Of a DNA stretch of 64,000 bases, positions 8,044 to 28,622 are shown one piece after another. The notes under the pieces are model-generated. The model did no database searches. It was not told where the DNA came from and was given only the letters and a program-made list of their open reading frames with translations. Source of the stretch: a virus; the IMG/VR virus record IMGVR_UViG_3300042446_002028, positions 8,785-72,784 of that record. One strand, given 5' to 3'. Within the stretch, counting starts at the first letter, position 1; each line of letters opens with the position of its first letter. The position numbers and the translations under genes are program-made.

Positions 8044-9374
8044 AAATAGTAATAGCACAATATTATACAAAAAATTTAACTCACGGAGTTTATGCTGAAG
8101 CGATAAATAGAAAATATGCTGAAGAAAATGGTTATGTATATTATGTTGATACCGATAATGATAAAATAGTACAAAAATTAAATGGTAGAGCGCCAACATG
8201 GTACAAGTCACATTTAATTTTAGATGTCTTTAAAGAACATAATCCAGATTATGTGTTATTTCTAGATACGGACGCAATTATATCTGACACTAATGGTAGG
8301 GTTGAACAGTTCATTGATGAAAACTATAATTTCATAGCGGCTAGAGATAATAGTGAGCATAGTTTAATGAACGCTGGTGTGTTCTTAATAAAAAATTGTG
8401 AGTGGTCGGTTAATTTTTTAAACGCTTGGTGGGATTTGGGTGCAACGGTTAAACCGTCTGAATCTAGAAATATACCAATTTCAGATCACGATATGGAAAG
8501 TGAGGGGTATTTCTTAAATCGCTTATGGATGGACCAAACATTATTAACAATAATGTATGAGAAATATGAAGAGTATAGAAATTATATGGGTATCATTTCA
8601 AATAGGTCATTTAATTGGATGAAATATGATGACAATAATTTTATTTTTCACGCATATGCGTATGGTGCCGTTAAAAATCGGACAATTGATTTAATACACA
8701 ATGAAATTTTTAATATTATGATTGAAATAGATAAAACAAGTTTAGCTGAATGGGCTACATTATATCATACTGATAAACACCATTCACATGGTTTTTTTGA
8801 TGGAGTATATCAAGATTTATTCTTACCGTTAAAAGATACAACAAATAAATTTGTGGAGCTTGGAGTGCACGAAGGTGGATCAATTAATATTTGGAAAAAC
8901 TTTTTTGAAAATTCACAAATCATTGGTTTGGACTGTTCATTCACATCTAGTAATATTAGAGACATGGATAGAATATCGTTAGTTAAAGTTAATTCCGCAA
9001 TTAAAGAAGAATTGGAAGGTTTTGCCAATCAACATACTGATATTGATGTGTTTATGGATGATGGCTCACATATCATGAGAGACCAACAAATAACATTAGG
9101 TGTCTTATTTAAATCCATAAAATCAGGTGGTATTTTTATATTAGAAGATTTACACACCAGTGTTAGCGTTAAAGAAAATAATGAATCAATATGGGGTAAA
9201 AAAAATGAAACAATAACATTAGATATGTTAGAGCGTTTCAATGAAACAGGTAAAATTGAATCTGATTTTTTAACCGATGACGAAGCGCGTTACTTAGAGG
9301 AAAATATTAAAGAATGTAAAATTTATAAACTTAAAGCAGATTGGAGCTATACGTCTGTTATTATTAAAAAATAA
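8040..9374 (+). CDS. Bifunctional glycosyltransferase / TylF(macrocin)-like SAM-dependent O-methyltransferase
   Basis: The N-terminal half has the nucleotide-diphospho-sugar transferase motif FLDTDAII (DxD). The C-terminal half has VELGVHEGGS (motif I of the TylF/MycF O-methyltransferase family) and DVFMDDGSH. Confidence 0.55.
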   Translation: MKIVIAQYYTKNLTHGVYAEAINRKYAEENGYVYYVDTDNDKIVQKLNGRAPTWYKSHLILDVFKEHNPDYVLFLDTDAIISDTNGRVEQFIDENYNFIAARDNSEHSLMNAGVFLIKNCEWSVNFLNAWWDLGATVKPSESRNIPISDHDMESEGYFLNRLWMDQTLLTIMYEKYEEYRNYMGIISNRSFNWMKYDDNNFIFHAYAYGAVKNRTIDLIHNEIFNIMIEIDKTSLAEWATLYHTDKHHSHGFFDGVYQDLFLPLKDTTNKFVELGVHEGGSINIWKNFFENSQIIGLDCSFTSSNIRDMDRISLVKVNSAIKEELEGFANQHTDIDVFMDDGSHIMRDQQITLGVLFKSIKSGGIFILEDLHTSVSVKENNESIWGKKNETITLDMLERFNETGKIESDFLTDDEARYLEENIKECKIYKLKADWSYTSVIIKK

Positions 9375-18531: not shown

Positions 18532-18533
18532 AA

Positions 18534-18944
18534 GGTGGAGGTGACGGGACTCGAACCCGTGTCTTTCCTGCTCAACAATAAATGACTACACGTTTATTCA
18601 ATTAGTTCACAACTGACAAATATTTGGTTCCTATTTTGACATCGTTACCAACAACTGTGTCGAGTTCACTTTTGTTACGGTAGCCCTCTGAACAAGACCG
18701 TTTATTTCTTTTTGGGTAGAAATCACACCTTAAGAGCTTCTGTTCCTAGGTTACATGCTCGTCGACCCGATTGTAGTACCTAACTTGGTTAGGCAGCTAC
18801 TTTGGAAGTTGCAAGTAAACCTGCAATTTCCATGTTGTTGTAAACGTTGCCGTTTGAATTGTTTCACCGTAGATTTAAGTCATAGATGAATTCTGACTAC
18901 GTGCCATTTATTCCCGATACCTGAAATCAATGCCAGGCACCCCC
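18534..18944 (-). ncRNA. ssrA: tmRNA (ssrA), about 411 nt
   Basis: The reverse-strand 5' end is GGGGGUGCC and the 3' end is ...ACGGGUUCGAGUCCCGUCACCUCCACC. These form a 7-bp acceptor stem with a G3-U70 wobble, a T-arm and an encoded -CC. An internal frame GGC AAC GUU UAC AAC AAC AUG GAA AUU GCA GGU UUA CUU GCA ACU UCC AAA GUA GCU GCC UAA ends in ...KVAA-stop, which is tag-peptide-like. A terminator follows. Confidence 0.75.
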
Positions 18945-20744: not shown

Positions 20745-21690
20745 GGGGCTCGTTGGTTTTTCAATAAAATTTTTCCGAGATTCCACCACCATGATTTTTT
20801 AAAACCAGGAAACAATGTTTTTAAAAAGGGCTGAGATTACACCATTTAGCGATTGACTTTAGAGACATTATCTTTTCTTCTCTTATCCACTACCTTTTGA
20901 GTAGTACCAATCAGTGACGGTCAATTAGATTAACCAATTCTTTAGTCGTCGAATACTCTTTTAATACTCATTACTCTTCGAGGTTGCCACCCCAACGCAT
21001 CCTTGCGGGATTAGAGAACTTTCTTAAAAATCATGTTGGGCTTGGGACCCTTCATGGCCGAGAACCCCTCTCGACTGTGTAGTCACCTGTCTCCAACGAC
21101 TGATGGGCACTTTTCCTTGTTTTTTAAGTTGTTAAACCTGAATTAACAATTGAGTTGGTTCCGAATTTGGAAAGTAGCGGCCCATCTGCCAGCCAAGTCA
21201 TCTTTTGAACGACCCGATACTAAACTACTCTCTGTAACATCCCTGCTACCATATTTTTGGACCCCTTCAAAACTAAACCCTTGGTAGAGTTTAATTAAGG
21301 ATGATAACGACACCACTCGTACTTCACCATACCTTTCGGTTTTAAGATTCCCATCATATTGAATCACACAATTGTAAGATTGGAAATCCTACTTCTTGTA
21401 ATAACTCTACAGATTATTCTTATTGGTGTTCCCACCTCAACCAAACAACTCGGATTGCTTGATCATCGAACCACTTTCCCTACAGTGTTACCCTCAGTAA
21501 TTAAGGTTCAATGATATTCTGTTTGCCTACTCAAGTTCCATTGCTGAAACCGCAATCTGATTTAACCAAACCAGACCACTTTATCCCACTTTCATGGTTT
21601 ATTTTGTTGACCATAGGCGGCCAATATTTTTAAATCAAAGAACTAATTTATTTCTTTTGCAAAGATAAGTAATGTTTGTCAAAAAATCAA
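20745..21690 (-). ncRNA. Candidate large structured non-coding RNA (about 0.95 kb, ORF-poor, GC-elevated)
   Basis: No ORF longer than 74 aa in any frame. GC content is visibly higher than in flanking DNA (for example cttcatggccgagaacccctctcgactgtgtagtcacctgtctcc). The region is bounded downstream by a reverse-strand terminator and lies about 1.5 kb from the tRNA arrays. Strand is assigned only from the terminator orientation. Confidence 0.3.
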
Positions 21691-22803: not shown

Positions 22804-23265
22804 CTATAACCTAACTAAATGGTTTGCGGCATAAGTCATTAATGCCCCAACGTGTTTATACCTTACCTTGTAACCCATACCTTCAACCATACCAACAGCT
22901 TGTCTAAGAACTGTGTTTGATTTGTATTTTGGGTCTGGATTAAGATCTATATCAATCCAGGTTGGTTTAGGTAAACCATTTTCTTTTAAAAATTCAGCCA
23001 TCTCTAAAGATTTCCAAACTTCACCTAGTAAACGCGAAGGTGTGTTATGTTCCATAGGTAATGTTTCACGAGTACATAACACGTGAGCACCTTTACCTTT
23101 AGTATATAACGCAACAACAACACCAAAGATTGTTTTTTTATTTCCGTAACATTGTGAGTCAGAACCGATAAGAATTTCCACATTCTCTCTTGTTGAGATG
23201 TACTCTCTGATGTATTCAATAGCATCTGGAATTGGAGTTCCATAGAGAGTTCTAAATTTTTTCAT
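22804..23265 (-). CDS. YkuK/DUF458-like RNase H-fold protein
   Basis: ILIGSDSQCYGNKKTIFGVVVALYTKGKGA matches the IGTDSQ...G.GA core of the YkuK family. Confidence 0.5.
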   Translation of the reverse strand: MKKFRTLYGTPIPDAIEYIREYISTRENVEILIGSDSQCYGNKKTIFGVVVALYTKGKGAHVLCTRETLPMEHNTPSRLLGEVWKSLEMAEFLKENGLPKPTWIDIDLNPDPKYKSNTVLRQAVGMVEGMGYKVRYKHVGALMTYAANHLVRL

Positions 23266-23295: not shown

Positions 23296-23468
23296 CTGTC
23301 AGGGATGGATTCGAACCACCACGGTGAGATTCAGTAATTAACATCTGCCGGCCGGCTTGGTGGTCTACCCCATATTAATTACCTATTTCTTTGTCACCAC
23401 GCTCGAGACAGGAGCGCTTGTCTGCCTAGATTGATACGCGTACCAATCAAATTTCAACACCTGACAAT
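23296..23468 (-). tRNA. Atypical long tRNA-like element (about 173 nt): canonical T-arm and 3' acceptor strand, with the 5' acceptor complement about 165 nt upstream
   Basis: The reverse-strand 3' end is GGUGGUUCGAAUCCAUC-CCUGACA-G. The only UGUCAGG partner is at 23462-23468. The interior contains hairpins (AGACA...UGUCU, GCUCGAGC). This could be an intron-containing or interrupted tRNA, or a tRNA-derived RNA. Confidence 0.25.
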
Positions 23469-23472
23469 TTAT

Positions 23473-24072
23473 TTAGATGTCTTCTTCTCTAAATATTTTT
23501 TCTAATCTAGGCGATAACGTTTTATAATTCATATTGAATTTTGTCGACATCGCAGATTTAACATTTTTATTTTTATATGGGCTATTATTGGGTCTTGACC
23601 ATTTTCTGGTTTTTCTAAGCCAATTATAAAACATCACATACGCGTTCGCTTTTCTCACGTAATTTTCAAGATCCACTTTTAAATTAAATTTCTTAATGAC
23701 TTTTACGGACCTTTTTTCGTTATCCAATTCTAAATCACGCGCTACCGCTATGTGTGTATCAATGTTTCTAACGTTTTTACCATCTAACCATTCCCATACC
23801 TTACCTAATGAGTTTTCCGCGTCTAACCATATTGGTATTTTTTCAACCCATTGAGTTAAATGCGAATATTCGTGCGCTAAAATTTCAACCCAATCTGGTC
23901 GATTCATTGCAACAACTAATACTTTTCCAGTTTCATCAAAATAACCAGAACATTTAACGTTGTCGTCCATTTTAACTGTTTTTGTTTTCTTTAATAGACA
24001 TTTAATTCCATAGATTTTACATGATGTCTTTACATGATTAAGAAAAATCATCTCATTTTTTGTGTGTTTCAT
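23473..24072 (-). CDS. Hypothetical protein with an HExxH motif
   Basis: A 199 aa ORF containing ILAHEYSHLTQW. It sits between tRNA elements. Confidence 0.45.
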   Translation of the reverse strand: MKHTKNEMIFLNHVKTSCKIYGIKCLLKKTKTVKMDDNVKCSGYFDETGKVLVVAMNRPDWVEILAHEYSHLTQWVEKIPIWLDAENSLGKVWEWLDGKNVRNIDTHIAVARDLELDNEKRSVKVIKKFNLKVDLENYVRKANAYVMFYNWLRKTRKWSRPNNSPYKNKNVKSAMSTKFNMNYKTLSPRLEKIFREEDI

Positions 24073-24087
24073 AGGGTACTTTTACTG

Positions 24088-24173
24088 CGGAGAGTAAGGG
24101 ACTCGAACCCTTGCGCCGCAAACGACCTAACAGTTTAGCAAACTGCCCCCTTCACCAACTTGGGTAACTCTCC
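24088..24173 (-). tRNA. tRNA-Ser(GCU), class II
   Basis: Acceptor stem GGAGAGU/ACUCUCC. The anticodon arm GCAGU-UUGCUAA-ACUGU reads GCU, with a long variable arm, in the cloverleaf folded by hand. T-arm AGGGUUCGAGUCCCU. Confidence 0.8.
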
Positions 24174-24177
24174 ATTG

Positions 24178-24248
24178 TTGTCCCTCTAGGATTCGAACCT
24201 AAACAAACTGCACCAAAAACAGTTGTGCTACCGTTACACCAAAGGACA
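24178..24248 (-). tRNA. tRNA-Gln(UUG)
   Basis: Acceptor stem UGUCCUU/AGGGACA. Anticodon loop UUUUGGU reads UUG in the cloverleaf folded by hand. T-loop UUCGAAU. Confidence 0.8.
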
Positions 24249-24311
24249 ATTTAATCATCATTGAGAATGTAGATTTTCACTAACTCGATTTAGCGGTCTC
24301 TTTGATGATTG

Positions 24312-24384
24312 AGCGAGTAGTCAGAATCGAACTGACATATCCTACTTGGAAGGAAGGCATAATAAGCCATTATACTATACTCGC
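24312..24384 (-). tRNA. tRNA-Gly(UCC) (tentative; D-stem register unusual)
   Basis: Acceptor stem GCGAGUA/UACUCGC. Anticodon loop CUUCCAA reads UCC in the cloverleaf folded by hand. T-arm GUCAGUUCGAUUCUGAC. There is a U-U mismatch in the anticodon stem. Confidence 0.6.
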
Positions 24385-24438
24385 TTTGATGGATGAAAAA
24401 CATCTATTCTTCTTGCGGACTTCCATCGGAGTCCCATG

Positions 24439-24510
24439 AGCTCCCACTCGGAATCGAACCAAGTTATCATGATTACAAGTCATGCGCATCGCCTGCAATG
24501 CTTTAGGAGC
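24439..24510 (-). tRNA. tRNA-Thr(UGU)
   Basis: Acceptor stem GCUCCUA/UGGGAGC. D-arm GCAU..AUGC. Anticodon loop CUUGUAA reads UGU in the cloverleaf folded by hand. Confidence 0.8.
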
Positions 24511-24516
24511 TTATTG

Positions 24517-24589
24517 TAGAAGATACCGGAATCGAACCAGTGACATCTTGCATGTAAAACAAGCGCTCTCCCAACTGAGCTAATCTTCT
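24517..24589 (-). tRNA. tRNA-Val(UAC)
   Basis: Acceptor stem AGAAGAU/AUCUUCU. D-arm GCUCAGUUGGGAGAGC. Anticodon loop UUUACAU reads UAC in the cloverleaf folded by hand. Confidence 0.8.
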
Positions 24590-24594
24590 ATGTG

Positions 24595-24668
24595 TGGACC
24601 AAACAGGATTCGAACCTGTGACCTTGTCGTTATGAGCGACCTGCTCTAACCATCTGAGCTATAAGTCC
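24595..24668 (-). tRNA. tRNA-Met(CAU), elongator-like (could be Ile2/lysidine)
   Basis: Acceptor stem GGACUUA/UUGGUCC (G1-C72). Anticodon loop CUCAUAA reads CAU in the cloverleaf folded by hand. The T-arm region GGUCACAGGUUCGAAUCC resembles elongator Met. Confidence 0.7.
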
Positions 24669-24721
24669 ATATCGTTTAATCTAACGATAAAATCTGTTAT
24701 CGTCTATATTGACGATTAATA

Positions 24722-24837
24722 GGTGCCGGAGAAAGGATTGATTACCTCCACGAGGTCCTTTCGGAGTACTCATCTTCTAGAATGCGACACGTCTCAACGT
24801 TACTCGTCAGCATCGTTGTTTATTCCGCCACTCCGGC
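24722..24837 (-). tRNA. Atypical 116-nt tRNA-like element (perfect 7-bp acceptor GCCGGAG/CUCCGGC, discriminator A, encoded CC; degenerate T-arm)
   Basis: The reverse strand reads GCCGGAGUGGCGG...GGAGGUAAUCAAUCCUUU-CUCCGGC-A-CC. There are no canonical D or anticodon arms. It lies inside tRNA array 1. Confidence 0.25.
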
Positions 24838-24961
24838 ATGTATCTTCTTTTACATCTTCCTCTTTTTTTGAATTAAATTCATCTAATGATTGGATGTAAG
24901 TTTTTCCGTCTTTAGTTGGAAAAGTTTCTTGTAAATATTGTTCTCTATTCATATTTTTATG

Positions 24962-25042
24962 TTGGGATAGACGGACTCGAACCGCCGAACTCAAAGAGAG
25001 CTGATTTACAGTCAGCCGCAATTGCCACTATGCGATATCCCA
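24962..25042 (-). tRNA. tRNA-Tyr(GUA), class II
   Basis: Acceptor stem UGGGAUA/UAUCCCA. Anticodon arm GCUGA-CUGUAAA-UCAGC reads GUA, with a long variable arm, in the cloverleaf folded by hand. T-arm GGCGGUUCGAGUCCGUC. Confidence 0.8.
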
Positions 25043-25047
25043 ATATG

Positions 25048-25129
25048 TGACCAAGGAGAGATTCGAACTCTCACGTCTTTCGACACTAGTGCCTAAAACT
25101 AGCGTGGCTCCCATTACACCACTCGGCCA
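25048..25129 (-). tRNA. tRNA-Leu(UAG), class II
   Basis: Acceptor stem GGCCGAG/CUUGGUC. Anticodon arm CUAGU-UUUAGGC-ACUAG reads UAG, with a long variable arm, in the cloverleaf folded by hand. Confidence 0.75.
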
Positions 25130-25135
25130 TTATTG

Positions 25136-25208
25136 CGCTCCCTGAGGGTCACGATCCCCCGACTCCATCATTAACAGTGATGTGCTCTACCAACTGAGCT
25201 AAGAAAGC
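25136..25208 (-). tRNA. tRNA-Asn(GUU)
   Basis: Acceptor stem GCUUUCU/AGGGAGC. Anticodon loop CUGUUAA reads GUU in the cloverleaf folded by hand. The T-loop is the non-canonical AUCGUGA. Confidence 0.75.
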
Positions 25209-25213
25209 GATTG

Positions 25214-25288
25214 TAGGGTAAAGAGGACTCGAACCTCCATGATGCCTTGCTCCCAAAGCAAGTGACTTAGCCATTAGTCCATTACCCT
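25214..25288 (-). tRNA. tRNA-Pro(UGG)
   Basis: Acceptor stem AGGGUAA/UUACCCU. Anticodon loop UUUGGGA reads UGG in the cloverleaf folded by hand. Confidence 0.75.
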
Positions 25289-25296
25289 ATTTATTG

Positions 25297-25370
25297 TGAT
25301 CCCATCAGGGATCGAACCTGAAACCCCAATCTTAGAAGGATTGTGCTCTATCCAATTGAGCTATGGAACC
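25297..25370 (-). tRNA. tRNA-Arg(UCU)
   Basis: Acceptor stem GGUUCCA/UGGGAUC. Anticodon loop CUUCUAA reads UCU in the cloverleaf folded by hand. D-arm GCUCAAUUGGAUAGAGC. Confidence 0.8.
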
Positions 25371-25486
25371 AATTTAATGTAATGTCTGTACGGTTTGTAT
25401 CTAATCAGCACCTTTGTACGCGCTTCAAAAGTTTCCATTTCATACATAGCGTCTGTTCCGTCACCTATTACTAGGTCATTACATTG

Positions 25487-25571
25487 TACTCGAGGCCGGA
25501 CTCGAACCGGCACGGACGTTTCTGTCCAAGGGATTTTAAGTCCCTCGTGGCTACCATTACACCACTCGAGC
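25487..25571 (-). tRNA. tRNA-Leu(UAA), class II
   Basis: Acceptor stem GCUCGAG/CUCGAGU (G1-U72). Anticodon arm AGGGA-CUUAAAA-UCCCU reads UAA, with a long variable arm, in the cloverleaf folded by hand. Confidence 0.75.
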
Positions 25572-25630
25572 ATTTCTTTCTCAATATGTCAAAGAACTCC
25601 TTTTCAAATATAAAGATAATAAATTGTAAA

Positions 25631-25662
25631 ACAAAAAACCCGAACATTTTTAGTTGTTCGGG
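25631..25662 (-). terminator. Rho-independent terminator (reverse strand) downstream of the secreted-protein gene and upstream of tRNA array 1
   Basis: Hairpin CCCGAACA...TGTTCGGG. The A6 run on the forward strand is a T-run downstream on the reverse strand. Confidence 0.5.
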
Positions 25663-25847
25663 TCTCGATATTAGTTTAAAAAATTTATTTATCCTTTATT
25701 GATATCCGAACATATGTAACATAACGGTTGCACACCATACCCATTACCATTATTAAGGGGTCTCGTACTCGTTGATATGTTATTTATATTCTTCATCGTT
25801 TTAATAAGTATATGCAAATATATTAAAATTATCAATAGTTAATAAAA

Positions 25848-26297
25848 TTATTTCACTTTATATGATAATCCAAGCCCTAATGTGAAATCATCACCAATTA
25901 TATTTCCAATTGTCCATAGATTTATAACACTACTTGGTCTAAGTGGATTGTACATTATAAGAAAATTAGGTTTATTTCCATTAAGTGTTGGTTGTAATCC
26001 AAACCCAACAATCGCTTTGTCCTCTTTTACTTGTCTAAGAACGCCAAACTTCATGTTATCGGATACGTTTCCTGTTTTGGTGTTGACACCAGGTGGAATT
26101 ACAATTCCACCGTTTTGACCACCCAATTCGCCATATGGAAGACCAGCATAGAATCCCCAACCTTTCTTCATAAAAGCACCTGTTATATAACCATCTGATG
26201 GACCACCTTTTCGAGTGGCGGTTATAAACCACTCTTGTCCATTTGCCACGACTTCCACTCCCAAAAGTAACGTTAGCATTAAAATAATTTTTTTCAT
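25848..26297 (-). CDS. Secreted hypothetical protein (signal peptide)
   Basis: N-terminus MKKIILMLTLLLGVEVVANGQ. 149 aa, Gly-rich. Confidence 0.5.
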   Translation of the reverse strand: MKKIILMLTLLLGVEVVANGQEWFITATRKGGPSDGYITGAFMKKGWGFYAGLPYGELGGQNGGIVIPPGVNTKTGNVSDNMKFGVLRQVKEDKAIVGFGLQPTLNGNKPNFLIMYNPLRPSSVINLWTIGNIIGDDFTLGLGLSYKVK

Positions 26298-26596
26298 TTT
26301 TTTGATTTGGTTAAGGAATCTTCCTTAGCCCACTTATCTTTTAAAATAACAACCTTCTCAATCTTTACAATTTTACCATTCAATTTGGTAATCTCGTCCG
26401 TGATTTCTTTGGTTTTGACGGCCCTGCTAGCGTAATTATCATCTGTTGCTTCAACCCATTCAATTTTTCTTTCAAGAGCTTTAATCTCTTTTTTAATTTG
26501 ATTGTAGGTCTTTCTTTCGTCGGAAAAACTTGGGTCGATAGAGGATGTTAATGTGTTAAAAAATAACATTAACGATAATGTGATTTTATCTATCAT
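26294..26596 (-). CDS. Membrane-anchored coiled-coil protein
   Basis: A 100 aa ORF with an N-terminal hydrophobic segment. An ATATTTATA box lies immediately upstream of the start. Confidence 0.45.
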   Translation of the reverse strand: MIDKITLSLMLFFNTLTSSIDPSFSDERKTYNQIKKEIKALERKIEWVEATDDNYASRAVKTKEITDEITKLNGKIVKIEKVVILKDKWAKEDSLTKSKK

Positions 26597-26674
26597 ATAT
26601 TATAAATATTAATAATATGGTAAAAATACAAAATAAAATATTGGGAATCAATAGTTTAATATATAAAAAGATTG

Positions 26675-26746
26675 TACTCAGTACGGGATTCGAACCCGTA
26701 TTACCTCCGTGAAAGGGAGGTGACCTAACCCTTAGTCGAACTGAGC
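26675..26746 (-). tRNA. tRNA-Glu(UUC)
   Basis: Acceptor stem GCUCAGU/ACUGAGU. Anticodon arm CCUCC-CUUUCAC-GGAGG reads UUC in the cloverleaf folded by hand. Confidence 0.8.
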
Positions 26747-26947
26747 AAGTGACACCATAATTTATCCAGCTTACAGGTGCCTTAGTTGTCCCCGACAAAT
26801 GTCAGGTTAGGAATAATCATTTCGTCCTCACGAGGTCGGGCTGATAAACCCAGACGTTATTCCTATACGTCTATGTACGTTCCCATACGGTTGTCAAACC
26901 GTTTCTCATCATATTGGGCATATTATTCGACGACTAAACGAATCGTG

Positions 26948-27033
26948 CGGAGAGAGTAGGATTCGAACCCACGGTTCCTTTCAGAACTTCGGTTTTCAAG
27001 ACCGACGCGATAGACCAACTCTGCCATCTCTCC
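26948..27033 (-). tRNA. tRNA-Ser(UGA), class II
   Basis: Acceptor stem GGAGAGA/UCUCUCC. Anticodon arm UCGGU-CUUGAAA-ACCGA reads UGA, with a long variable arm, in the cloverleaf folded by hand. Confidence 0.8.
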
Positions 27034-27132
27034 AAATTATCACATCAAACAGACATTCTACTCCCAGCTCCGAGGAATTGTATCTAACTTAGCCCATCTC
27101 ACCGCTGTATGGGTACCTGAAGATATGATTTG

Positions 27133-27206
27133 CGGACTGTACGGGACTCGAACCCGTGAACTCTACCGTGACAGGGTAGCATGATAACCAACTTCACCAA
27201 CAATCC
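27133..27206 (-). tRNA. tRNA-Asp(GUC)
   Basis: Acceptor stem GGAUUGU/ACAGUCC. Anticodon arm CUACC-CUGUCAC-GGUAG reads GUC in the cloverleaf folded by hand. T-arm ACGGGUUCGAGUCCCGU. Confidence 0.75.
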
Positions 27207-27525
27207 GAAATTGATTCTAACTCACCTTAAGTTGCACCATCCGAGTCATAGCTTTGGTTGACAAAGTCCTCGTTGAGTTAGTATCAAAAAAAAATAACAA
27301 GTTTTTCGCACCCATTCGTACATCATAACCAACATATCCCTACGTTGGTGGCTACACTTTCGTCATTGGGGTAATTATTCCCGACTTGTAGTAACTCTAC
27401 TCTCACCGCTATAATACCGCGAATCAAGGCGGGTGTTGAGATTTATAGACAGTGGGGTTTCACCACCGTCGTCACCTGTTATACAAATATAAATTAAATT
27501 TTTTAAAATTCAAAATACATTTTTG

Positions 27526-27593
27526 TTGCGGGGCCAGGAGTCGAACCTGGAACACTCGGCTTATGAGACCGGTGGGAAACCATTCTCCCCGCA
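27526..27593 (-). tRNA. Short (68 nt) tRNA-like element with a CAU anticodon loop (Met/Ile2/initiator-like; D-arm reduced)
   Basis: Acceptor stem UGCGGGG/CCCCGCA. Loop CUCAUAA. T-arm CCAGGUUCGACUCCUGG. The D region is only about 12 nt. Confidence 0.45.
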
Positions 27594-27595
27594 AT

Positions 27596-27673
27596 ATGGG
27601 GTGATTGACGAGATTCGAACTCGCTTTATTCTAGCGCCACAAGCTAGTGCTCTACCATACGAGCATCAATCAC
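27596..27673 (-). tRNA. tRNA-His(GUG), with CCA encoded
   Basis: Acceptor stem GUGAUUG/CAAUCAC, discriminator C73, then CCA. Anticodon arm CUAGC-UUGUGGC-GCUAG reads GUG in the cloverleaf folded by hand. Confidence 0.8.
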
Positions 27674-27675
27674 AG

Positions 27676-27746
27676 AGTCAGGTATTGGATTCGAACCAAT
27701 GTACGAGGTTTTGCAGACCTCTGCCTAGCCACTCGGCCAACCTGAC
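27676..27746 (-). tRNA. tRNA-Cys(GCA)
   Basis: Acceptor stem GUCAGGU/ACCUGAC, discriminator U73. Anticodon arm GAGGU-CUGCAAA-ACCUC reads GCA in the cloverleaf folded by hand. It lies 2 nt from tRNA-His. Confidence 0.75.
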
Positions 27747-27750
27747 TAAT

Positions 27751-27795
27751 TACTTCCGACTTTGGCGGTGTTTTACTTCCGACTTTGGCGGTGTT
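27751..27795. repeat. Tandem direct repeat, 2 x about 22 bp (tacttccgactttggcggtgtt)
   Basis: The sequence tacttccgactttggcggtgtt-t-tacttccgactttggcggtgtt is readable directly, between tRNA-Cys and tRNA-Arg. Confidence 0.8.
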
Positions 27796-27848
27796 GTTCA
27801 CTTTTGTTCTCTGTTCACGAACCGTGAACAAGCAACTTTTGTGAACAT
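27796..27848. promoter_or_regulatory. Cluster of GTTCAC/GTGAAC half-sites including a perfect palindrome GTTCACGaacCGTGAAC: candidate operator or processing site within tRNA array 2
   Basis: The sequence tgttcacttttgttctctgttcacgaaccgtgaacaagcaacttttgtgaaca carries gttcac twice and gtgaac twice in inverted arrangement. Confidence 0.35.
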
Positions 27849-27850
27849 CG

Positions 27851-27922
27851 AGGTCTCTAAAGGATTCGAACCTTTACCAAAACATCCGTAGTGTTTCATG
27901 CTATCCGTTACACCAAAAGACC
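27851..27922 (-). tRNA. tRNA-Arg(ACG)
   Basis: Acceptor stem GGUCUUU/AGAGACC. Anticodon arm AAACA-CUACGGA-UGUUU reads ACG in the cloverleaf folded by hand. Confidence 0.8.
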
Positions 27923-27929
27923 TTATTTG

Positions 27930-28000
27930 CACGGGTAGAGAGATTCGAACTCCCATCGAGGGTTTTGGAGACCCGTATGCTGCCGTTGCACCATACCCGC
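27930..28000 (-). tRNA. tRNA-Trp(CCA)
   Basis: Acceptor stem GCGGGUA/UACCCGU (G1-U72), discriminator G. Anticodon loop CUCCAAA reads CCA in the cloverleaf folded by hand. Confidence 0.75.
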
Positions 28001-28005
28001 GTGTG

Positions 28006-28079
28006 TGACCCCGAATGGACTCGAACCATTGACTCCCTCATTAAAAGTGAGGTGCTCTAACCAACTGAGCTACGAGGTC
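28006..28079 (-). tRNA. tRNA-Lys(UUU)
   Basis: Acceptor stem GACCUCG/CGGGGUC. D-arm GCUCAGUUGGUUAGAGC. Anticodon arm CCUCA-CUUUUAA-UGAGG reads UUU in the cloverleaf folded by hand. Confidence 0.8.
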
Positions 28080-28084
28080 ATTTG

Positions 28085-28157
28085 TGGAGATAGTTGGTTA
28101 CGATCCAACTCCTCTGGATTTTCAGTCCAGTGCTTCTACCAAGTTAGCTTCATCTCC
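28085..28157 (-). tRNA. tRNA-Phe(GAA)
   Basis: Acceptor stem GGAGAUG/UAUCUCC. Anticodon arm CUGGA-CUGAAAA-UCCAG reads GAA in the cloverleaf folded by hand. The T-loop is AUCGUAA. Confidence 0.75.
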
Positions 28158-28162
28158 TTATG

Positions 28163-28235
28163 TTCTTAGGGGTAGATTCGAACTACCAACCTCCTCGGTA
28201 TCAGCGAGGTACTCTCACCATTGAGTTACCTAAGA
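28163..28235 (-). tRNA. tRNA-Ile(GAU)
   Basis: Acceptor stem UCUUAGG/CCUAAGA. Anticodon arm CCUCG-CUGAUAC-CGAGG reads GAU in the cloverleaf folded by hand. Confidence 0.8.
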
Positions 28236-28240
28236 ATGTG

Positions 28241-28312
28241 TGGACACGTAGGGAATCGAACCCTTTCACTCTGATTGCAAATCAGGTGGTCTGCCATTGA
28301 CATCCGGCCCAT
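28241..28312 (-). tRNA. tRNA-like element, possibly tRNA-Ala(UGC); acceptor pairing not resolved
   Basis: T-arm AAGGGUUCGAUUCCCUA and a hairpin CCUGA-UUUGCAA-UCAGA (anticodon UGC) are present. I could not pair a 7-bp acceptor stem by eye. Confidence 0.3.
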
Positions 28313-28622
28313 TTATATTGTGCCAAATCGTTAATTTTTTGACACTTTTGGCTGAGTATAAAAAATTATAACCAGCCAAAACTCATATAAAACAAAAAAC
28401 CCCGAGATTTTGTCCCGAGGTTTTCTAATATTTTAAGTTAAACTTTTATTTAACCGACATCAGTATCATCGAGACATATGGACATAGCGCGCTCATCCGC
28501 CCATTTTGAGCAGATAATAAACGACATTGTATGTTTTTGTTGTCTCATTGAATTTGTTTAATGTTTAAATCTTTTTGCAAAGATACTAATAAGTATTCGT
28601 AAAATAAAGAAAAGTTTAAAAA

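Follow-up and report, generated by a model that had tools for sequence, protein, structure and literature searches.

Two elements in the tRNA gene array of an uncultured phage resemble tRNAs but are far too long to be ordinary ones, and the question they raise is whether they are tRNAs at all and, if not, what they are. The array lies in a stretch of 64,000 nucleotides (nt), here called the window, which covers positions 8,785 to 72,784 of IMG/VR record IMGVR_UViG_3300042446_002028. We refer to the elements as E1 (171 nt) and E2 (116 nt). An earlier note on the window described E1 as a perfect tRNA 3' half with a distant 5' partner and E2 as a perfect 7-base-pair (bp) acceptor stem followed by a discriminator A and an encoded CC. 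All of these features are present, on the minus strand. The same note offered interrupted tRNAs, tRNA-derived regulatory RNAs and recombination scars as explanations. We argue here that E1 and E2 very probably represent two genuine, conserved families of tRNA-derived RNAs, that they probably do not decode, and that they may well associate with copies of themselves through palindromic hairpin tips.

Folding the single sequences gave modest z-scores (-2.2 and -2.6), which are unconvincing alone, and it is the comparative evidence that is decisive. Relatives were gathered by searching IMG/VR with the two flanking proteins, which yielded 81 loci; among these, BLAST found E1 in 25 and E2 in a handful. 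Degenerate DNA patterns drawn from conserved stretches gave at least 119 stretches for E1 and 101 for E2. After nhmmer filtering, E1 comprises 161 loci and approximately 120 distinct full-length sequences among the matches listed, and E2 comprises 66 loci and approximately 50 distinct sequences, in both cases from viral metagenome contigs. There is one copy of E1 and one of E2 per locus, and in the 32 loci that carry both, the two share a strand and E2 lies 0.6-10 kilobases (kb) upstream of E1. Because the retrieval patterns held neither the anticodon nor any palindrome, the conservation of these features, described below, is not an artefact of the search.

Both families are apparently undescribed. 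The literature searched yielded no description of either, and Rfam 15 holds no model for them: at gathering and permissive thresholds E1 gave no match and E2 gave a sub-threshold match to manA, while RF00005 matched neither element even at E <= 10. Megablast and blastn searches of approximately 50,000 cultured-phage genomes returned no homologue of E1 or E2 and no DNA-level relative of the region. In a scan of genome collections, true E1 occurred among the 120 matches listed only in a Cytophagales metagenome-assembled genome (MAG; L298) and a Bacteroidia MAG (L319), both on contigs of 2-3 kb binned with Bacteroidota; the remaining matches were mostly chance hits to the pattern. These two contigs are the sole hint as to the host phylum, which is probably Bacteroidota.

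E1 is a full cloverleaf with two inserted domains (Table 1). Its fold was derived from 23 diverse homologues by alignment, by pair counts on a hand-drawn structure and by a separate RNAalifold prediction, all of which agree. The alignment is 89.5% paired, and 30 pairs have changed on both sides. For E1 and E2 alike the covariation score exceeds those of all 500 shuffles and all slid controls. The 7-bp acceptor pairings are therefore well beyond chance, being intact in 117 of 119 distinct E1 homologues, which use 28 different acceptor sequences, and in 47 of 47 homologues of E2. In the 23 aligned E1 sequences the acceptor stem is 100% paired and four of its seven pairs covary, with U1-A72, G2-C71 and U3-A70 near-invariant. 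The 3-bp D stem also covaries (UUG/CAA, GUG/CAC, GCG/CGC, ACG/CGU), and the anticodon stem is 100% paired with all five pairs covarying. The insert in the D loop is found in approximately 70% of homologues and has a palindromic apex in many of them. The T loop reads UUCGANY in all homologues.

The larger insert takes the place of a variable arm. It is built from a base stem of 4-5 bp, three more pairs, a 4x3 internal loop (AAUA/GAA), a covarying stem of 11-12 bp and an apical junction, from which emerge an invariant hairpin, GGGGUAGACCACC (23359-23371), and a second short element. The internal loop (E1 positions 80-83/135-137; window 23384-23387/23330-23332) and the GGGGUAGACCACC hairpin (E1 positions 96-108) are invariant motifs without an obvious known counterpart, and both are candidate sites of protein or tertiary contact. 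The earlier description of the E1 interior as stable hairpins was thus correct in that the interior is structured, but incomplete, as it missed the full D stem, the 5-bp anticodon stem with its 7-nt loop and the structured variable-arm domain. In its native form E1 escapes tRNA detection: ARAGORN with intron, pseudogene and transfer-messenger RNA (tmRNA) modes finds no gene that spans it, and a relaxed threshold produces a spurious partial tRNA-Asn inside it. When both inserts are deleted in silico, the remaining 74-nt core is called tRNA-Asp(gtc). The next-best matches of the R1 model in the window are real class-II tRNAs.

What the core of E1 has kept and lost is informative. Across 122 distinct sequences, the anticodon nucleotides G34, U35 and C36 are invariant (122/122), as are U8, G9, G12, A14, A15 and the GG of the D loop (100% each); G73 is present in 100%, C74 in 99% and C38 in 94%. 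With U8, A14, the D-loop GG and the UUCGA of the T loop, E1 retains every universal nucleotide of the elbow. By contrast, decoding tRNAs almost universally have U33 and a purine at position 37, and E1 maintains neither: position 33 is U in 55%, C in 35%, A in 9% and G in 1%, and position 37 is U in 89%, C in 10% and A in 1% (a pyrimidine in 121 of 122, a purine in one). Compared with CUGUCAC, the anticodon loop of the tRNA-Asp of the phage itself, the E1 loop CUGUCUC is altered at position 37 alone. The retained nucleotides G34, U35, C36, C38, G73 and G2-C71 make up the E. coli tRNA-Asp identity set for aspartyl-tRNA synthetase (AspRS), to which G10 also belongs. The identity nucleotides are found at G73 in 100% of E1 sequences, at G2 in 98%, at G34/U35/C36 in 100%, at C38 in 94% and at G10 in 66%. 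From this pattern we infer that E1 may be under selection for recognition of an Asp anticodon by something other than the ribosome. Two pairings of the E1 anticodon loop were considered and set aside. A pseudoknot between the D loop (AGAC) and the anticodon loop (GUCU) was rejected, as positions 45 and 46 vary and GUCU is invariant, and pairing of the loop GUCUC with GAGAC of E2 or with a UAGAC hairpin of E1 was dropped for lack of covariation.

E2 shows the same kind of construction on a different tRNA. Its alignment of 47 distinct sequences is 92.3% paired, 17 pairs have changed on both sides, and none of 500 shuffles reaches its score. The terminal ACC is invariant in the family, the 3-bp D stem is canonical (G10-U25, C11-G24, G12-C23) and all five pairs of the T stem covary. 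The T loop is 8 nt (UAAYCAAU) or 7 nt (UGAAAAU) long, and in place of an anticodon arm the family has a stem of 2-4 bp closing a palindromic loop of 9-12 nt. The earlier note had called the T arm degenerate and the D and anticodon arms non-canonical. This holds for the D loop, the anticodon-position arm and the T loop, but not for the D stem or the intact 5-bp T stem, and the class-II variable arm had gone unnoticed. E2 can be aligned, one module after another, with a canonical tRNA-Leu(UAA) gene carried by a related phage (L054); the shared modules include the opening 9 nt, UAGAC in the D arm, the CGUGUGGGU junction and the variable arm with its GAAA, to which the variable arm of E2 is equivalent. 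Because of this alignment, and because the best match of the R2 model in phage T4 is tRNA-Leu, we take E2 to be derived from tRNA-Leu, with another structure in place of the anticodon loop. Leucyl-tRNA synthetase (LeuRS) does not read the anticodon, which fits the remodelling of this loop.

We conclude that E1 and E2 are probably non-decoding, E1 because it does not maintain U33 and a purine at position 37, and E2 because it has no anticodon loop.

What these RNAs have gained points towards self-association. Of the 25 distinct variants seen at the tip of the E1 variable domain, 23 form perfect Watson-Crick palindromes 6-12 nt long; nine different tetranucleotides occur at their centres, and examples are GCCGGCCGGC, GCUUGCAAGC, AGCCGGCU, GCAUGCAUGC, GCUAGCUAGC, GCUCGAGC, GCUGGCCAGC, GCUCGCGAGC and GCUUCCGGAAGC. 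Random 16-nt windows of the same loci hold a palindrome of at least 8 nt in 4% of cases and of at least 6 nt in 15%. The loop at the anticodon position of E2 carries a palindrome of at least 6 nt in 46 of 50 sequences; UCUAGA, UUCUAGAA, UUCGAA, CCUAGG, ACUAGU, UCCGGA and longer forms occur and are related to one another by symmetric double substitutions. The D inserts behave similarly, with UACGCGUA, GCGUACGC, GGAUAUAUCC and UGUGCACA among the apex palindromes of E1 and with GUAC, UGUACA, UUCGAA, GGCC or UGGCCA in the D-insert loop of most E2 members outside the window's subfamily. Up to four palindromes coexist in one phage, and those at different sites of a phage all differ, so that each site would pair only with itself.

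In other words, hairpin tips with a self-complementary sequence of at least 6 nt have been kept through symmetric substitutions, as is characteristic of kissing loops. The central 2-4 nt of such a hairpin cannot pair internally yet remain self-complementary, which suggests pairing between two copies of the RNA. The central 4 nt of the palindromes are predicted to be unpaired in the monomer ensemble, and RNAcofold, applied to isolated palindrome segments since loop-loop contacts of the full-length RNAs would be pseudoknotted in that model, favours the homodimer by 11-19 kcal/mol (for the E1 tip, approximately -19 kcal/mol relative to two hairpins). We consider the chances about even that E1 and E2 self-associate as homodimers, and as chains or rings where an RNA has two such sites.

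We hypothesize that these properties belong to a single pathway. First, E1 and E2 would be transcribed with the array or with neighbouring genes and excised by RNase P and the enzymes that process tRNA 3' ends. Second, they would take no part in decoding. Third, they would self-associate via their palindromic apical loops, E1 through the variable-arm tip and the D insert and E2 through the anticodon-position loop and the D insert. Fourth, and least certain, the resulting dimers or oligomers would serve as multivalent tRNA mimics and bind a protein that recognises tRNA identity. In the case of E1, the partner could be a protein that recognises the Asp set (GUC, C38, G73), for instance the dimeric AspRS or a host nuclease directed at tRNA-Asp; the partner of E2 could be a protein indifferent to the anticodon, as LeuRS is. 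For the first step, the context of the genes is suggestive. Nearly all tRNA genes of the array have a C after the discriminator but do not encode a complete CCA, tRNA-His excepted, and U, the preferred context for RNase P, occupies position -1 in tRNA-Met (the sole array tRNA whose 5' flank was read), in 84% of E1 and in 98% of E2, which suggests a uniform processing context and a dependence on the CCA-adding enzyme across the array. Among 136 distinct loci, 83 have a tRNA no more than 300 nt from E1, and in 33 E1 comes immediately behind tRNA-Ser; in relatives E2 starts 4-15 nt after a tRNA.

Taken as a whole, the reading we favour is that E1 and E2 are two stable non-decoding RNA families that evolved from tRNA genes inside phage tRNA arrays and act as self-associating tRNA mimics, and we would put the case for it at evenly balanced. 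Its further reaches are more tentative. It is possible, though on the doubtful side, that the two RNAs are a decoy, sponge or scaffold for a tRNA-binding protein. Similarly speculative is the idea that they are self-assembling, tRNA-shaped building blocks, each bearing one or two mutually orthogonal tips, whose assemblies would present several tRNA identity surfaces. With these the phage would trap or organise proteins that read tRNAs (AspRS, LeuRS or anticodon nucleases of the host), and the GOLLD nanocage might take part.

Several observations weigh against this reading. Non-palindromic copies exist (2 of 25 E1-tip variants and 4 of 50 E2 loops), and the E2 D-insert loop of the window's own subfamily is a conserved non-palindromic sequence, CUGACGAGUA. 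The palindromes could be read at the DNA level or arise by template-switch mutation, although this is less parsimonious. Because the body of E1 is class-II-like and its invariant U1-A72 is atypical of tRNA-Asp, recognition by AspRS is uncertain. Across 136 loci no protein gene is universally linked to E1, the best candidates reaching 48, 38 and 21 of the 136. Finally, E1 is dispensable, since it is missing from some close relatives, in which tRNA-Ser(gct) abuts the next gene and lies 27-48 nt from the RNaseH-like gene.

The alternative that survives best, improbable as we find it, is that the elements are cis-acting processing signals, a form of "tRNA punctuation" that is cut to separate or stabilise the flanking mRNAs and that leaves an excised RNA without further role. 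The genomic context is what suggests it. In the window E1 sits between two open reading frames (ORFs) of the same strand, beginning 6 nt past the stop of the ORF at 23473-24072 and ending 30 nt before the start of the RNaseH-like ORF; no terminator hairpin was seen by eye in the 30-nt gap, for which no terminator scan was run. A spacing of 28-38 nt between E1 and the RNaseH-like ORF recurs in 15 loci. However, a plain tRNA or an acceptor-T minihelix would be enough for cutting, and punctuation leaves the invariant GUC, C38, G73, the conserved 76-nt domain and the palindromes unexplained. Furthermore, the genes that flank the elements vary among loci, and E2 is mostly found between tRNAs.

Less probable again is that E1 and E2 are partners or cargo of the neighbouring GOLLD RNA. 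The 14-mer nanocages formed by GOLLD have been suggested as containers for phage tRNAs (PMC12286853). Among the loci fetched, 32 with E1 and 28 with E2 also contain GOLLD, which in the window is 2 kb away. This co-occurrence may simply mirror a shared phage lineage, and 129 of the 161 E1 loci have no GOLLD in the DNA fetched.

The palindromes might instead act in DNA, as sites for dimeric proteins or as cruciforms, and not as an interface between RNAs. A perfect inverted repeat is equally symmetric in DNA, and template-switch mutation, which can create perfect palindromes, is a general source from which these could have come. However, at least 23 different sequences occupy one position of the RNA structure and up to four palindromes are found per phage, so that a DNA-level role would need many co-evolving DNA-binding specificities, and the palindromes always fall at the hairpin tips of a covarying RNA fold. 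We regard this explanation as unlikely, and self-association of the RNAs as the better account of the tips.

That E1 and E2 are working tRNAs for Asp and Leu, used in translation after their introns or insertions are removed or tolerated, is very unlikely, even though the excised E1 core is recognised as tRNA-Asp(gtc), the elbow and T loop of E1 are canonical, and E2 keeps the acceptor and D-stem sequence of tRNA-Leu together with the ACC end. ARAGORN finds no gene spanning either native element with its intron and pseudogene options, and group I/II intron or ribozyme families give zero matches at E <= 10. The anticodon loop is free of inserts; they are placed in the D loop and the variable region, positions that are wrong for known bacterial tRNA introns, and they are conserved and covary. 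Of the E1 sequences, 45% are without U33 and 99% have a pyrimidine at position 37; E2 lacks a 7-nt anticodon loop altogether, and its "anticodon" would vary between phages. The array already holds a canonical tRNA-Asp and two tRNA-Leu genes. Nor do relatives carry an ordinary tRNA at the E1 site, where there is either the full element with its inserts or nothing. The earlier suggestion of tRNAs with introns or insertions is therefore right in that E1 is a cloverleaf with two insertions and wrong as to their nature: because the inserts are conserved and covarying, match no intron family and accompany a core that has lost U33 and purine-37, they are probably functional domains of a non-decoding RNA and not introns of a working tRNA. 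Its companion suggestion of tRNA-derived regulatory RNAs stands as far as descent from tRNA, conservation and structure are concerned.

We give still less credence to the possibility that E2 is a diverged cis-regulatory RNA of the manA type, a riboswitch candidate. The RF01745 model matches 24722-24856 weakly (21.8 bits, E = 0.0056 in a 1.8-kb search), and E2 and the manA consensus have GGAGUG-C-GAAUAAAC and a 3' hairpin in common. This score compares with a gathering threshold of 55.2 bits, the central half of the model is missing, and the match depends on a small hairpin at 24838-24856 (minus strand) that lies upstream of E2 and outside the E2 family. Eleven other loci that bear E2 have no manA match, and E2 is followed by a tRNA and not by a regulated gene. 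Least probable of all is the remaining proposal of the earlier note, recombination scars or decayed tRNA pseudogenes without function: although tRNA finders miss both elements and E1 is absent from some close relatives, it is rejected because of covariation across more than 100 variants (approximately 120 and 50 distinct sequences, with compensatory changes in every helix), and invariant non-helical motifs (GUC, GGGGUAGACCACC and AAUA/GAA in E1; GUGGCGGAA, AGACG and ACC in E2) further contradict it.

The window itself has 33% G+C and derives from an uncultured jumbo phage that encodes a large terminase subunit, a ClpB-like ATPase and many glycosyltransferases. Its tRNA array comprises 22 genes identified by ARAGORN (24087-28235, minus strand) and two weak tRNAs seen by Rfam alone. 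E2 lies between tRNA-Tyr and tRNA-Met, and E1 forms the downstream end of the array. The array had been said to cover all 20 amino acids, which is true only if the weak tRNA-Ala candidate is counted. Relatives also carry a tmRNA (for example, L013, 7506-7902). A 50-codon ORF (24801-24953, minus strand), which starts in the spacer between tRNA-Tyr and E2 and extends over the first 37 nt of E2, is probably spurious. Most of the non-tRNA spacers of the array (27207-27525, 26747-26946, 25371-25485, 25572-25847 and 28311-28622, all minus strand) are kept in many related loci at 82-96% identity over 115-319 nt. Some fold strongly, such as 26747-26946 (-54.8 kcal/mol for 200 nt), a spacer that only two loci matched. 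These spacers may contain further unannotated RNAs or mini-ORFs.

Among the neighbours of E1, a 92-amino-acid protein is encoded upstream in 48 of the 136 loci, and an RNaseH-like PF04308 protein is encoded within 600 nt downstream in 25. In 12 loci (L058, approximately 1855-2450, and 11 others) the gene directly downstream encodes a protein with the motifs HVTLLYGL ... HMTVAYL, which, from its two HxT motifs, we take to be 2H-phosphoesterase-like, similar to LigT.

Table 1. Positions in the window of E1, E2, their parts and the neighbouring features
Feature	Position	Strand	Basis or remark
E1, tRNA-like RNA, full cloverleaf, anticodon GUC, two inserted domains	23466->23296	(-)	R1 covariance model, 158.8 bits
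E1 acceptor 5' strand UGUCAGG	23460-23466	(-)	pairs with 23297-23303
E1 D-loop insert hairpin, 20 nt	23429-23448	(-)	apex palindrome UACGCGUA at 23435-23442; optional in family
E1 anticodon arm, 5-bp stem and 7-nt loop CUGUCUC	23400-23416	(-)	anticodon GUC at 23407-23409
E1 variable-arm domain, 76 nt, branched	23323-23398	(-)	base-stem and long-stem pairs covary
E1 apical palindrome GCCGGCCGGC	23347-23356	(-)	self-complementary 10-mer; proposed homodimerisation site
E1 T arm GGUGG-UUCGAAU-CCAUC	23304-23320	(-)	canonical
E1 acceptor 3' strand CCUGACA	23297-23303	(-)	
E1 discriminator G	23296	(-)	followed by C
E2, RNA derived from tRNA-Leu, ends A-CC	24837->24722	(-)	R2 model, 83.8 bits
E2 acceptor 5' strand GCCGGAG	24831-24837	(-)	pairs with CUCCGGC at 24725-24731
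E2 D-loop insert hairpin CAACG...CGUUG	24795-24818	(-)	in place of G18G19 region; alignment
E2 anticodon-position arm	24773-24787	(-)	weak 2-3-bp stem; loop with palindrome UUCUAGAA (24775-24782)
E2 class-II type variable arm, capped by CCGAAAGG	24752-24771	(-)	4/4 stem pairs covary
E2 T arm and acceptor 3' strand CUCCGGC	24725-24749	(-)	5-bp stem; non-canonical 8-nt loop UAAUCAAU
E2 discriminator A; encoded CC	24724; 24722-24723	(-)	ACC invariant in family
ORF upstream of E1	23473-24072		weak, below-threshold match to Pfam DUF6782 (putative metallopeptidase family)
RNaseH-like ORF (PF04308) downstream of E1	22804-23265	same strand as E1	
GOLLD RNA, full-length	20828-21232	(-)	317 bits; 2 kb downstream of E1
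tmRNA	18533-18944	(-)	83.9 bits
Canonical tRNA-Asp	27132-27206	(-)	ARAGORN; anticodon loop CUGUCAC
Weak tRNA candidate, CAU anticodon	27526-27593	(-)	Rfam only, 33.4 bits
Weak tRNA-Ala candidate, UGC, G3-U70	28241-28310	(-)	Rfam only, 29.7 bits; two acceptor mismatches

The usual interpretation of tRNA arrays in phages is that they consist of ordinary tRNAs and serve as toolkits for codon usage or against defence. To our knowledge the only long-known exceptions are RNAs C and D of phage T4, which have had no assigned function for fifty years. The comparative data on E1 and E2 show which tRNA features such RNAs keep (the processing signals and the acceptor/T module, to which E1 adds the whole Asp identity set), which they discard (U33, purine-37 and the whole anticodon of E2) and which they gain (the 76-nt domain and the self-complementary tips). 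This pattern makes the role of extra RNAs in phage tRNA clusters experimentally approachable, through assays of dimerisation, aminoacylation and protein pull-down. As tRNA finders and Rfam miss both families, they stand unannotated in hundreds of viral contigs.

The closest analogues of E1 and E2 are these same T4 RNAs (species 1 and species 2), small stable RNAs whose biological roles are unknown (PMC3014915). In the T4 annotation, rnaC (139 nt) and rnaD (119 nt) occupy the downstream end of the tRNA cluster on the tRNA strand (L415, 2909-3172, minus strand), much as E2 and then E1 do in size and order, and rnaC ends in a canonical T arm, CCGGGUUCGAAUCCCGG, as E1 does. E1 differs in its complete cloverleaf, conserved anticodon and branched variable domain. 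With filters off, no homology was detected: the R1 model scores 12.6 bits on part of rnaC and R2 matches neither RNA. The relation is therefore one of kind and not of family.

Class-II tRNAs (Leu, Ser and Tyr, and tRNA-Sec) have, like E1 and E2, a D stem of 3 bp and a helical arm placed between the anticodon arm and the T arm, and they are the next-best matches of both R1 and R2. Known tRNA variable arms measure approximately 13-21 nt, whereas that of E1 is a branched arm of 76 nt, and E1 has moreover lost U33 and R37. E2 departs from the class in having no anticodon loop, no G18G19 and no UUC T loop, and both elements fall below the Rfam tRNA threshold (29 bits).

Other RNAs have likewise reused the acceptor/T-arm architecture for non-decoding purposes, among them tmRNA, YrlA and the tRNA-like structures (TLS) of plant viruses. 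The tRNA-Ala-like domain of tmRNA has G3-U70, where E1 has U3-A70 and E2 has C3-G70, and tmRNA lacks the anticodon arm that E1 keeps; ARAGORN in tmRNA mode and Rfam give zero tmRNA matches on E1 and E2. The 5' and 3' ends of YrlA form a Ro-binding stem and not an acceptor stem. No Rfam match to YrlA (RF02553) or TLS overlaps E1 or E2, and sub-threshold YrlA matches fall on ordinary tRNAs.

For the palindromic tips, the nearest parallel is the retroviral dimerisation initiation site (DIS), as in HIV-1, whose hairpin loop displays 6 nt or more of self-complementary sequence that differs from strain to strain yet stays symmetric. The DIS sits in genomic RNA, whereas E1 and E2 are small, tRNA-shaped, phage-encoded RNAs whose putative dimerisation is deduced from sequence. 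GOLLD and ROOL are also phage-encoded, lie near tRNA islands, are of unknown function and self-associate by RNA-RNA contacts (PMC12286853). They are much larger than E1 and E2 and unrelated to them in sequence and fold, and for E1 and E2 the putative self-association is read from the palindromes. If E1 and E2 do self-associate, they would be natural homo-oligomeric RNAs like GOLLD, ROOL and OLE, in the same phages, and would provide a natural counterpart of engineered tRNA-based nano-assemblies; if they are in addition building blocks of larger assemblies, they would constitute a new class of oligomeric tRNA mimic.

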